Positions 6,968 through 28,161 of a stretch of 32,000 nt of DNA are shown here, piece by piece (position 1 is the first letter of the stretch; the number at the start of each line of letters is the position of its first letter). Origin of the DNA: Candidatus Jordarchaeales archaeon (GTDB lineage: Archaea > Asgardarchaeota > Jordiarchaeia > Jordiarchaeales > Freyrarchaeaceae); contig JAWCFL010000001.1 of the NCBI GenBank assembly GCA_038858525.1, positions 1-32,000 on the forward strand, written 5' to 3'. The notes beneath the pieces are model-generated. The model made no database searches, was not told where the DNA came from, and saw only the letters and a list, made by a program, of their open reading frames with translations. A program made the translations under genes and the position numbers.

Positions 6968-7146
6968 GTGAAGGAAGGAATCTAAAGTAATATAAGTATT
7001 TTTGATTAATGCATAAGTTTGTTAAGTTTTTAAAAAATAGGAGAGGAGTATGTGATTATGTGTTGCAAAAATTTTTAATAGCGTTAAAGATATAACTATT
7101 AGGGGAACAGTTTTTTTATTGAAACTCATGTAAGAGGTTGTTAGCT

Positions 7147-7542
7147 TTGTCCGTCGAACAAATAATTGCCGTTATAAATGAGCTTATTTCAGCCAATGAA
7201 AACGTAACTGCGGCAGCAGTTCTGACGAACGATGGACGTGTAATATATCAAACGGAAAATTGGGACGTTAGAGGGGACGCTACGAGCTTAATTTCTGCTT
7301 GGAGGGAAAAGGCGCCAGCAATATCAGTTCAAGGCATCAAGTACTCTGTTCTCCAATCGACCGAGGAAAGACTTGTTGCAACAAACGTAAGCGGACTTGG
7401 ACATATAATAATGGCGACAATACAGTACCGCGGCGTTCTGTTGGCATATGTGTCGCCTCAAGGCGATACTGGCGGAAGTTACGTGGATGTTAGCCGGGCA
7501 GCCATGAGACTTGTTCCAGTACTTCAAGCCATGGGTTACTAA
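7147..7542 (+). CDS. Asgard profilin (Odin-like, no Loki-loop insertion)
   Basis: 'GRVIYQTENW', 'ISVQGIKYSV', 'ERLVATNVSGLGHII' and 'LLAYVSPQG' match remembered Asgard profilin motifs. TTG 7147 lies 9 nt after AGAGG; alternative start 7138. Confidence 0.9.
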   Translation: MSVEQIIAVINELISANENVTAAAVLTNDGRVIYQTENWDVRGDATSLISAWREKAPAISVQGIKYSVLQSTEERLVATNVSGLGHIIMATIQYRGVLLAYVSPQGDTGGSYVDVSRAAMRLVPVLQAMGY

Positions 7543-24473: not shown

Positions 24474-24821
24474 ATGATAAGCTGGGAAAATGTAGGTGAT
24501 GATGAAGAATTAAAGGAGTTGAATGCTTTAAAGAAATTTGTGACAGGTGATTATGTCAAAATAGCTATCTTAGAGCAACTTGTCAAAGGAGGCTGGTGTA
24601 CCTTGAGCGAGCTGTGCAGAGCTGCAAGGGGGTACGACAGATATGTCGGACACGTGAGAGTATCTACAATATTACAATACATGGAGAGCATCGCTAAAGG
24701 CATTTTAGAAAAAGCAGAAAACGAGTTTTCTGTAAAGTGGAGAATTAGACCTGAGAAGAAAAAGGACATAGAAGGCTGGATTGGAGAAATAAAGTCGACA
24801 CCTTATCGTAAAAGTTTTTAA
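24474..24821 (+). CDS. Small winged-helix protein, hypothetical
   Basis: 'VKIAILEQLVKGGWCTLSELCRAA...VRVSTILQYM...ILEKAENEFSVKWRI' follows a wHTH helix-helix-helix-wing layout. Confidence 0.65.
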   Translation: MISWENVGDDEELKELNALKKFVTGDYVKIAILEQLVKGGWCTLSELCRAARGYDRYVGHVRVSTILQYMESIAKGILEKAENEFSVKWRIRPEKKKDIEGWIGEIKSTPYRKSF

Positions 24822-25017: not shown

Positions 25018-25629
25018 TTATTCTATTCTTGTCTCTTCAATTTTGTTTTTCGTTATTTTGAAAATTTGTATGGGTCCGCCTGATGCAGTGTCCCGGGACC
25101 TAGCGGCTCTTATTGCGCGCTCAGCTAAGCTAGCTGCTTCGTCAACAGTAATGCCGTCTTTGTACTCGTCTTCTAAAACACCGAATGCTATCACTGAGCC
25201 GGATCCTGTAGCGCCGAACTTGTCTTCTTCGATTAGGCTTCCCATGGGGTCTAGAGTGAAAAGGTGGGGGCCTGTAGAGTCTACTCCACCTAAAATGAGC
25301 ATACTGATGTAAGGGAATAACCGGTTTTGAAAGAGAATTAATGATGTAAGACGAGCTGCGGCTTTTACTGAAACGTCTCGTTTAAGCTCCATCTTCAGGA
25401 GTGAAAGATTTGCTTTTAGCACATCAACGACATGTTGACAGTCCGCAACGGAGCCGCTTATTGTTACTGCAATTCTATCAGCGACCTTGAATATCTTGGG
25501 GGCGGTAGTGCTTGCTATTATGTTTCCCATAGTTGCTTGAGATTCCGTCGCAAGCACAACGCCATCCTTGCAAACTATTCCAACAGTTGTAGTACCGCTC
25601 ATAAAAACCTTCGAGTTTTCCCGCTGCAT
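25018..25629 (-). CDS. psmB: Proteasome subunit beta
   Basis: 12-aa propeptide ending in G, then the catalytic TTTVG N-terminus, 'KIFKV', 'SGSVAD' and 'ATGSGS'. Confidence 0.97.
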   Translation of the reverse strand: MQRENSKVFMSGTTTVGIVCKDGVVLATESQATMGNIIASTTAPKIFKVADRIAVTISGSVADCQHVVDVLKANLSLLKMELKRDVSVKAAARLTSLILFQNRLFPYISMLILGGVDSTGPHLFTLDPMGSLIEEDKFGATGSGSVIAFGVLEDEYKDGITVDEAASLAERAIRAARSRDTASGGPIQIFKITKNKIEETRIE

Positions 25630-25771
25630 AAGGATCCCCTCACTGATTCGCTCAAATAAAGACGCTGAATCTAAGAATTAAGAAGGAATATATAAATGCT
25701 TTTTCACATCAAAACCTCAAAAATTAAGTATCTTCACGTCTAATCATGGAAAACAAAAATATGACGGAGGT

Positions 25772-25864
25772 TGGTGGGCGGGCCAGGATTTGAACCTGGG
25801 TCCTCCACGGTGTCAACTTCGCCTCTTCTTTGTGTGGCGTCATAACCAGCTAGACTACCCGCCC
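25772..25864 (-). tRNA. tRNA-Val(GAC) with a 16-nt non-canonical intron at 30/31 (25818..25833); CCA encoded
   Basis: Removing ACAAAGAAGAGGCGAA gives a 77-nt cloverleaf: GGGCGGG/CCCGCCC acceptor, CCACG-TTGACAC-CGTGG anticodon arm, TTCAAAT T-loop. Confidence 0.92.
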
Positions 25865-25877
25865 ACTAAGTGATGAT

Positions 25878-26022
25878 TGGTGGACCCCGCGGGACTTACT
25901 CAACCCTTTCTAGGTTTTTGAATTCGCGGTCCCCTCTTCAGGACACCCGCGGCCTCCGCGATGCCGACGCGCCCCCTTGGTTGGGGGAAACGCGGTGCTC
26001 TACCAGGCTGAGCTAGGGGCCC
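25878..26022 (-). tRNA. tRNA-Ala(GGC) with three non-canonical introns: 33/34 (25966..25988), 53/54 (25923..25945), 58/59 (25896..25917); CCA encoded
   Basis: Removing 23+23+22 nt yields a 77-nt cloverleaf with the Ala identity pair G3:U70, A73, CCGCG-TTGGCAT-CGCGG and GCGGG-TTCAAGT-CCCGC. Each intron forms a bulge-helix-bulge. Confidence 0.92.
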
Positions 26023-26049: not shown

Positions 26050-26064
26050 ATTTAAGTATTTTTC
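26050..26064 (-). promoter_or_regulatory. Probable BRE + TATA promoter of the tRNA-Ala/tRNA-Val pair
   Basis: Minus strand reads GAAAAATACTTAAAT about 28-42 nt upstream of the tRNA-Ala 5' end. Confidence 0.6.
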
Positions 26065-26451
26065 GGGAGGCAAGAATACTAAATTATTTTTCCTAAGTTA
26101 GCTGTTTTTTAAGAGCTGAAGTTTAGAATATTGGTTTAAATGCTTCTTAAACTGTGAAGCTGTTGCAAGAAAGGTAATAAATTTAGGAAAGCGAAATTAG
26201 TTGCAACGCTATAGTACTACATAGTGAAGTATCAAGTTAAAGAGCCACCTTTCATTTTGCTTTCGGTGATTAATTTTAATAGGTGGCGGTGTTCTGGACT
26301 CAGGTTTAAATGCGTTTAAAGACCAAATTGTTTAAGAAATGGGATCTGGGCTGATTCGAATGAAAGTAAGCGGACGGCGGTGTTTCATGTTTGTTGTTTG
26401 TCTTTTATGTTGGGGTTTTAATAGAAAGGTGAAGTTTAGAGAACGGGTGGG

Positions 26452-26805
26452 TTGATGGAGTTTGAAAACCCGTTTTATTGGTGGATTACGAATCCGGGGA
26501 TAAATTTTCTTTTGTCTCTTGTCTTCTCAGCTATAGCTTTCATAGGTGTGATATACTTCGTAGTTAACTTGGTTTTTCTTTCATCAAGTGAGAGAAATAA
26601 AGGAAAACATATCATTGGGATCTTGTTTTCTCTGCTGGTTATAGGGTTCTGCCTAAGGTGGGAGTGGTTTTTGATTTTCATTGGAAACGTGTCAAGCCTT
26701 TTGACTAAAGGAATCGGAGATATATTAATGCAAGCGGTTTATTACTGGTATCTTTATAGCTTCGAGGAAAAAGTGAATTTAACCTTAACTTCACTAATCG
26801 TTTAA
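26452..26805 (+). CDS. Hypothetical membrane protein (2-3 TM)
   Basis: Hydrophobic hairpin with a short polar loop 'SSSERNKGK'; GGGTGGG RBS-like sequence upstream. Confidence 0.6.
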   Translation: MMEFENPFYWWITNPGINFLLSLVFSAIAFIGVIYFVVNLVFLSSSERNKGKHIIGILFSLLVIGFCLRWEWFLIFIGNVSSLLTKGIGDILMQAVYYWYLYSFEEKVNLTLTSLIV

Positions 26806-27438: not shown

Positions 27439-28161
27439 ATGGCGGTGAAACTTGTGTCTCAAAATGACGGGCTTGTTGCAAAGGGAGACTTTATTCTTGT
27501 CGATTTAACTGGACGCGTGAAGGACGGAGAAGTTTTCGAAACTACGTTAAGAGATGTTGCTGAGAAAGAAGGAATATATGATGAAGGTGAAGTTTACGAG
27601 CCGCGGCTTGTCATTGTAGGTGAGGGATGGGTTTTACCTGAGATTGACAGAACGTTAGAGGGTATGAGAGTCGGCGATACGAAGCTTGTTGAGGTAAAGA
27701 ATGCGTTTGGGGAGTGGAAAAGAGAAAATGTTAAGTCCTTTCCTCTTAAGGAGTTCCTGAAGAATAATATAGATCCAAAGCCGGGTATGCGTGTAAGGAT
27801 AGGCGGAAAATTAGCGACGATTAAAAGGGTGGGGGGTGGAAGAGTTAGGGTTGATATGAATCACCCATACGCTGGGAAAACCGTAGTTTATGAGGTCATA
27901 GTGAAAAAAAGGATAACCGACCATGATGAAAAAATAAGGGCATTGATTAGGAGGAGAATGCCGAAGGTTCCCCTAGAAAAGACAAAAATAAATGCTGAGG
28001 ACACGAAAAAAATCACTATTGAGATACCTAAAGAGATATTTTTTGCTGACGGAGTGCAGCTTGTTAAATTCGGATTAGCAAGAGATCTCAAGAAGTACGT
28101 AGGATTCGAAGAAATAGTTTTTATTGAAAGGTATAGCGGGGAACTACTCGGTGAGTCTTAG
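27439..28161 (+). CDS. FKBP-type peptidyl-prolyl cis-trans isomerase (long archaeal SlyD-like type)
   Basis: 'KGDFILVDLTGR..GEVFETT', insert-in-flap region, 'VDMNHPYAGKTVVYEV' and a C-terminal archaeal extension. Confidence 0.92.
   Translation: MAVKLVSQNDGLVAKGDFILVDLTGRVKDGEVFETTLRDVAEKEGIYDEGEVYEPRLVIVGEGWVLPEIDRTLEGMRVGDTKLVEVKNAFGEWKRENVKSFPLKEFLKNNIDPKPGMRVRIGGKLATIKRVGGGRVRVDMNHPYAGKTVVYEVIVKKRITDHDEKIRALIRRRMPKVPLEKTKINAEDTKKITIEIPKEIFFADGVQLVKFGLARDLKKYVGFEEIVFIERYSGELLGES

Follow-up and report, generated by a model that had tools for sequence, protein, structure and literature searches.

The question raised by this locus is whether a 145-nt segment in the genome of a Jordarchaeia archaeon, which two tRNA scanners leave uncalled, can be a working tRNA-Ala(GGC) gene interrupted by three introns. 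The segment lies on the minus strand at positions 25878 to 26022 of the window, i.e. the whole 32,000-nt stretch of DNA analysed here. We report that it is, with a probability of roughly 0.93, a functional gene and the sole one for this tRNA in the assembly, and that its three bulge-helix-bulge (BHB) introns would be cut out by the endonuclease EndA and the exons joined by RtcB. As a tRNA-Ala(GGC) gene it is very probably real and functional.

The mature 5' end (G1) is at window position 26022 and the 3' A of the encoded CCA at 25878; the precursor begins with GGGCCCC and ends with GGGGUCC-A-CCA. Exon 1 (25989-26022) holds tRNA positions 1-33, i.e. the acceptor 5' strand, the D-arm, the 5' strand of the anticodon stem, U32 and U33, and is identical in three orthologues. 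Intron 1 (25988-25966, precursor positions 35-57) is 23 nt long and sits at site 33/34. Exon 2 (25946-25965; positions 34-53) carries the anticodon GGC, the 3' strand of the anticodon stem, the variable loop and the 5' strand of the T-stem, and is followed at site 53/54 by intron 2 (25945-25923, precursor 78-100; 23 nt). Exon 3 is a micro-exon of 5 nt, UUCAA (25918-25922), corresponding to T-loop positions 54-58, and intron 3 (25917-25896, precursor 106-127; 22 nt) comes after it at site 58/59. Exon 4 (25878-25895; positions 59-76) supplies G59, U60, the 3' strands of the T-stem and the acceptor stem, A73 and CCA. All three introns are thus off the canonical 37/38 site.

With 68 of the 145 nt being intronic, removal of 23, 23 and 22 nt leaves 77 nt, which ARAGORN calls as tRNA-Ala(ggc) and whose minimum free energy (MFE) fold is a cloverleaf (-36.8 kcal/mol). 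The spliced product has the features that identify an alanine tRNA (G3:U70, A73, the anticodon GGC and an encoded CCA) as well as U33, G18G19, a 5-nt variable loop and the T-loop UUCAAGU. The original prediction of a 145-nt gene that collapses to a 77-nt tRNA-Ala(GGC) on removal of introns at 33/34, 53/54 and 58/59 is exact in its coordinates, and ARAGORN and the fold agree with it, as do the blind search and the orthologues described below. It had also anticipated that standard scanners may miss the gene, and the two that were run both do: the unspliced form gives no call with ARAGORN or with the Rfam tRNA covariance model, even at an E-value of 10, and at this locus they report only the neighbouring gene at 25864-25772.

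In a proper BHB motif each strand, read 5' to 3', consists of a 4-nt helix strand followed by a 3-nt bulge that is cut after its second base. All three introns have a central helix (H) with 4 of 4 pairs and, on each of the two strands, a 3-nt bulge located 3' of the helix. Specifically, H is CGCG/CGCG in introns 1 and 2 and AUUC/GAGU in intron 3; the bulges, with an arrow at the predicted cut, are UU↓U and UC↓G, GG↓U and AA↓U, and AA↓A and AA↓G, respectively; and the inner hairpins are CCCCC/GGGGG, GUCC(U)/(G)GGAC and AACC(U)/(G)GGUU. One pair in the central helix of intron 3 is U.G, and this helix begins with the base that ends intron 2. These helices, bulges and separate inner hairpins are those of the original prediction (there CGCG/CGCG, CGCG/CGCG and ATTC/GAGT), with the cut position given by the BHB rule. 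An intron-side helix (h') of 5 bp flanks H in each intron, and removal of the three introns restores the cloverleaf, such that each has helix and bulges, a flanking helix and a sensible product. The outer, exon-side helix (h) is weak or absent (1, 0 and 2 bp for introns 1, 2 and 3), less than the strict hBHBh' definition of at least 2-3 bp of h plus h', and the motifs are therefore of the relaxed HBh' type and not full hBHBh' motifs.

In every intron H is formed by an exon strand, which in the mature tRNA belongs to a stem or loop, and by a decoy partner within the intron. Each BHB requires that an anticodon- or T-stem strand is unpaired from its mature partner, which counts against the reading we prefer. 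The explicit fold with three BHB motifs (-47.8 kcal/mol) is moreover less stable than the computed MFE structure of the precursor (-65.3 kcal/mol); a stability below that of the MFE structure is the usual finding with bulged, protein-recognised motifs.

How often such motifs occur by chance was estimated by counting, over the whole genome and on both strands, all sites where an intron 16-75 nt long would have H at 4/4 and 3 bp or more of inner helix. This gave 290,187 BHB-like sites, approximately 1.2e-3 per site and length, and with such a background it is very unlikely that three of them would by chance fall on boundaries fixed independently by the cloverleaf. In addition, a blind search was run in which all 7-bp acceptor-stem pairs 68-330 nt apart and with a U8 were combined with non-overlapping subsets of BHB candidates, and about one million virtual products were judged by ARAGORN. 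At the locus the sole insert-free product was that of the combination 35-57, 78-100 and 106-127; the others were nested register shifts that left residual bases behind and were called as Arg, Leu or Ala(UGC). Genome-wide, the search finds many multi-intron tRNA genes, among them a tRNA-Tyr locus with at least four introns; this partial census comprises about 18 loci and passes over relaxed motifs that have no inner helix, as well as genes lacking U8 or four G-C acceptor pairs.

These data bear on the possibility that the gene is spliced but at other boundaries, shifted by 1-2 nt, or that the number of excisions or the intermediate formed with introns 2 and 3 departs from the BHB rule. Register-shifted BHB-like candidates are indeed nested inside each hairpin (precursor positions 36-56, 37-55, 79-99 and 107-126), and the motifs of introns 2 and 3 overlap. 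However, 7-nt loops, U33 and a standard T-loop result only from the set 35-57, 78-100 and 106-127, and both the intron-free T-arms of paralogues in a congeneric genome and a compact tRNA-Ala(GGC) gene in another Asgard genome match the predicted length and register. We consider such shifted boundaries improbable, and retain the three excisions at 33/34, 53/54 and 58/59.

Comparison with related genomes, proposed in the original prediction as a check, shows that the tandem formed with the adjacent tRNA-Val(GAC) gene is present also in a genome of the same genus (G002) and in one of the same family but another genus (G004), with 87-88% identity over 251 nt to the present genome (G000). In both, tRNA-Ala(GGC) has introns at the identical three sites. 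Among these three genomes the exons differ at 0-1 of 77 positions, while the introns are 59-87% identical and vary in length. Several intron changes are compensatory: the inner hairpin of intron 1, CCCCC/GGGGG here, is CCUCC/GGAGG in G002, intron 2 shows G-C replaced by A-U and C-G by U-A, and the inner hairpin of intron 3 has compensatory pairs among the alanine genes. Ten alanine genes having both T-arm introns were aligned and the pairs counted for the two T-arm motifs; 95.8% of the cells were paired compared to 31-49% in slid controls, four pairs had changed on both sides, and the observed covariation score was reached by 0 of 500 shuffles, figures that are to be read with the relatedness of the 10 sequences, and the derivation of the structure from one of them, in mind. 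The micro-exon UUCAA is invariant in the 10 intron-bearing alanine genes.

The boundaries can also be placed from genes that lack the introns. In G002 the tRNA-Ala(CGC) and tRNA-Ala(UGC) genes are without T-arm introns, and their T-arms equal, letter for letter, what splicing is predicted to yield from the counterparts in the present genome; since intron 2 is missing from these two genes, its boundary is fixed without use of the motif. The spliced product can also be aligned gap-free with the tRNA-Ala(GGC) of a further Asgard genome (G019), which has no introns; 61 of 77 positions are identical. Standard tools fail on the present gene, yet comparative data fix every one of its boundaries. In the sister family the tRNA-Ala(GGC) gene has an intron at the same 33/34 site. 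As to its six genomes G005-G010, this 33/34 intron is longer and accompanied by an insert beside the anticodon, near 37/38, and T-arm introns are seen only in G005 and G006; for the gene in G007-G010 ARAGORN wrongly reports a tRNA-Phe(aaa) interrupted by 47-48 nt, and in G005 and G006 it makes no tRNA call.

It could be argued that the locus is a decaying tRNA pseudogene from which the insertions are never removed, and that the alanine codons GCC and GCU are read by a tRNA that was not assembled or not recognised. The assembly is 92.7% complete, which leaves some room for a second copy, and one could be hidden, given that standard tools overlook the majority of this genome's tRNA genes. Against this, the exons are 76-77/77 identical in three genomes from two genera while the introns diverge, the BHB helices are preserved by compensatory changes, the promoter-like block upstream is conserved, and the same architecture is found in the other two alanine isoacceptors. 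Moreover, no second tRNA-Ala(GGC) was found in the 92.7%-complete assembly by BLAST with the mature sequence, by a search for GGC anticodon stem-loops or by the blind search, and BLAST and the blind search likewise gave no tRNA-Ala(AGC) in it; the separate intron-free copy that, according to the original prediction, would together with a missing spliced product point to a pseudogene thus did not turn up in what has been assembled. Metagenome contigs scanned for exact copies of the spliced T-arm and anticodon-arm junctions gave no matches, a result of low weight because tRNAs are rarely assembled. We regard decay as very improbable. An artefact of assembly or binning is a still more remote explanation: the metagenome-assembled genome is a draft in 63 contigs, but G002 (8 contigs) and G004, which were assembled independently, have this Ala-Val tandem too, with introns at the identical three sites, and the T-arm introns are common to paralogues. 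A functional, triply interrupted gene is thus the reading we follow below.

All three alanine isoacceptors of this genome carry three introns. The genes for tRNA-Ala(CGC) (G000:C4:42217-42354) and tRNA-Ala(UGC) (G000:C3:49445-49582) both have a 16-nt D-arm intron at 22/23 together with T-arm introns at 53/54 and 58/59, and the latter are homologous to those of tRNA-Ala(GGC). In G002, tRNA-Ala(UGC) (G002:C1:1088321-1088413) and tRNA-Ala(CGC) (481105-481197) have retained the D-arm intron and lack both T-arm introns, whereas tRNA-Ala(GGC) of the same genome keeps all three of its introns; judging from these sequences, two neighbouring T-arm introns have been lost jointly and precisely (or through gene conversion) within a genus. 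The tRNA-Ala(CGC) and tRNA-Ala(UGC) genes are near-identical to each other, introns included, within every genome examined, which points to concerted evolution. At its 3' end the UGC copy encodes UCA and not CCA.

The census also listed an apparent tRNA-Ala(AGC), which is really tRNA-Asn(GUU) with its D-arm intron unremoved. The tRNA-Asn(GUU) gene (G000:C12:59895-60024, plus strand) is interrupted three times: besides the D-arm intron it has a T-arm pair, at 52/53 and 59/60, sites that differ from those of the pair in the alanine genes.

In the two T-arm introns of tRNA-Ala(GGC), the 3' bulge of motif 2 (precursor A99, A100↓U101) overlaps the central helix of motif 3 (A100-C103), and the two motifs therefore cannot form together. 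The exon between the introns is 5 nt long and would be held by little beyond helix 3 if all four cuts were made simultaneously. Because of this overlap and the short exon, introns 2 and 3 are most likely removed one after the other. In tRNA-Ala(CGC) and tRNA-Ala(UGC) of G004, helix 3 starts with A:C as long as intron 2 is present and with G53:C once it has gone, and is fully paired only in the latter state, which hints, in this one lineage, that intron 2 is removed first. A possible but rather doubtful extension is that the introns at 53/54 and 58/59 make up a splicing unit with an obligatory order, in which the overlapping motifs and the 5-nt exon demand that intron 2 be cut and ligated before intron 3, and that the joint loss in G002 would be the record of loss through a partly or fully spliced RNA intermediate.

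For precedents outside the archaea we considered the tRNA-Ile(UAU) gene of Cyanidioschyzon merolae, which also has three introns (12/13, 37/38 and 53/54; PMC3728597, PMC9602550), one of them at 53/54. The order of intron removal from this tRNA was observed experimentally (PMC9602550), a precedent for ordered removal, and its T-arm intron blocks formation of Psi55 by Pus4 until it has been removed (PMC3728597, PMC9602550). In contrast to the present gene, it is eukaryotic and nuclear, one of its introns is canonical, and it has no T-arm intron pair and no 5-nt micro-exon.

The genome has two genes with a tRNA-intron endonuclease catalytic domain, on G000:C3 and G000:C43. One product, EndA alpha (191 aa), matches the catalytic alpha subunit of Aeropyrum pernix (3p1z_B, E 1.6e-48) and keeps Tyr129, His137 and Lys168; in a gap-free alignment of the Crenarchaea-specific loop (CSL/L1) its Lys46 and Lys48 stand opposite K44 and R46 of A. 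pernix. This loop, K44 especially, gives the A. pernix enzyme its broad substrate range (PMC3241643). The second paralogue (198 aa) has alanines where EndA of Methanocaldococcus jannaschii has the catalytic histidine, and for lack of this residue it looks like a structural beta subunit. A gene for the RNA ligase RtcB is found at G000:C1:35280-36587 (minus strand; 601 bits), 3.3 kb past the end of the window. The genome hence appears to encode what splicing at non-canonical sites would need, a predicted broad-range EndA and a ligase. Typing of the EndA subunits, which the original prediction had called for, has therefore given a two-subunit enzyme, with an alpha subunit that has the catalytic triad and the CSL/L1 loop and a His-less, beta-like partner; Asgard (alpha-beta)2 EndA with the L1/CSL loop has been reported before (PMC5829648).

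We propose that the precursor is transcribed from the conserved BRE/TATA-like promoter together with the adjacent tRNA-Val(GAC). In each intron four exon bases would then pair with the decoy at the intron 3' end to form the BHB, and the heterotetrameric (alpha-beta)2 EndA would cut after the second base of each bulge, with the CSL/L1 loop of the alpha subunit conferring the broad substrate range. The exons would be joined by RtcB.

The putative promoter is the BRE/TATA-like block CCGAAAAATACTTAAA on the minus strand (26051-26066), at -44 to -29 of the mature 5' end. This 16-nt block, CCGAAAAATACUUAAA, is identical in the present genome, G002 and G004, the upstream flanks of which have diverged, and it is probably a BRE/TATA promoter. 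Also conserved is the leader with its terminal TCACGGT; the GGU is the complement of A73-C74-C75 and lengthens the acceptor helix of the precursor by 3 bp. Downstream, 13 nt after tRNA-Ala, lies tRNA-Val(GAC) (25772-25864, minus strand; Rfam tRNA 51.9 bits), called by ARAGORN as Val(gac) with a 16-nt intron. The intron (approximately 25833-25818) is at the non-canonical site ~30/31 and has H CGCC/GGCG and no clear inner hairpin, making it a relaxed motif; the Ala-Val tandem is kept in G002 and G004. In the sister-family genome G006 the neighbouring tRNA-Val(GAC) is intron-free. A T-rich run, T5GT4 (25750-25759, minus strand; read from the sequence), follows 13 nt after tRNA-Val and is a likely archaeal terminator. 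With this spacing and the run behind it, a dicistronic transcript is likely and the two tRNAs are probably co-transcribed. A scan for sigma-70 promoters and intrinsic terminators gave nothing useful, its models being unsuited to archaea.

With regard to the lineage, EndA alpha shares 91% identity with its counterpart in Candidatus Jordarchaeia archaeon QC4, and the other close relatives are Jordarchaeia and Freyarchaeota. The Rfam tRNA model gives only 5 hits in this genome, 5-11 in genomes of its own family, 5-9 in the sister family and 13-14 in a third family that includes two complete 2.8-Mb genomes, as compared to 20-44 in most other Asgard families. By the EndA match, the number of Rfam hits and the blind search, this genome belongs to the intron-rich Jordiarchaeia tRNA gene set, in which most tRNA genes are interrupted. 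Unless multi-intron genes are searched for, it would seem to be without a decoder of GCC and GCU and without most other tRNAs. The practical use of the present gene lies in annotation.

Such gene sets have been described. Valentin-Alvarado et al. 2024 (PMC11291895) report introns in 92-95% of the tRNA genes of Atabeyarchaeia and Freyarchaeia, with over half of the intron-bearing genes having multiple introns, often at non-canonical sites. According to a preprint (Goswami et al. 2026, bioRxiv 10.64898/2026.10.13.758758), Jordiarchaeaceae and Freyrarchaeaceae have 2.0-2.4 intervening sequences per tRNA gene and up to five in one gene; the median insertion is 22-23 nt, T-arm insertions have strong canonical BHB motifs, gains and losses were repeated and two-subunit EndA is widespread. 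Compared with the intron-rich tRNAs of Jordiarchaeaceae, Freyrarchaeaceae and Atabeyarchaeaceae as presented there, the present gene comes from the same lineage and has several short, mostly non-canonical introns (22-23 nt here); it shares with them the strong T-arm BHB motifs, the failure of standard detection and the variable presence among close relatives. We see no essential difference, and the text of the preprint does not describe this gene individually. What the comparison adds is that the T-arm introns are common to the three alanine isoacceptors and that both have been lost from two genes of a congeneric genome. Such presence and absence within a genus is recent turnover of the kind that the preprint names for studying intron gain and loss.

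The view, held in the original prediction, that multi-intron tRNAs are established mainly in Thermoproteales-type archaea is out of date in the light of PMC11291895 and the preprint (bioRxiv 10.64898/2026.10.13.758758). The novelty of the gene was to lapse if many Asgard examples were known, and published work supplies them; the significance that the original prediction gave the gene for EndA specificity and for intron spread near the eukaryotic root is unsupported, as both the phenomenon and the EndA type had been published. The tRNA-Ala(GGC) gene is an ordinary member of a published class and brings no new principle, the lineage distribution, the association with BHB motifs and the EndA type all being on record. 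Thermoproteales tRNAs likewise have up to three non-canonical BHB/HBh' introns (Sugahara 2007, 2008; Marck and Grosjean 2003, cited after PMC4090602 and the preprint), and the enzyme that cuts them is an (alpha-beta)2 EndA having the Crenarchaea-specific loop (PMC3241643), as predicted here. They belong to a different phylum, however, and many of their introns fall into families that different tRNA types have in common, which has been read as transposition. Sharing across types is almost absent in Asgard archaea according to Goswami et al. 2026 (bioRxiv 10.64898/2026.10.13.758758), and in our data intron sharing is seen only among the alanine isoacceptors.

Finally, the original prediction had spoken of a profilin-encoding Asgard genome. 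The assignment to Asgard archaea stands, and there is a borderline profilin-like ORF of 134 aa (7138-7542, plus strand), which in a direct ORF scan scored 24.9 bits against a Pfam Profilin cut-off of 25 (E 2.4e-5), in agreement with that remark; the whole-genome Pfam search gave no profilin match. The ORFs at 26452-26805 and 24474-24821 on either side of the tRNA pair have no Pfam match and no significant PDB match. The pair is also flanked by a proteasome subunit gene (25018-25629, minus strand) and a gene for an FKBP-type isomerase (27439-28161, plus strand).
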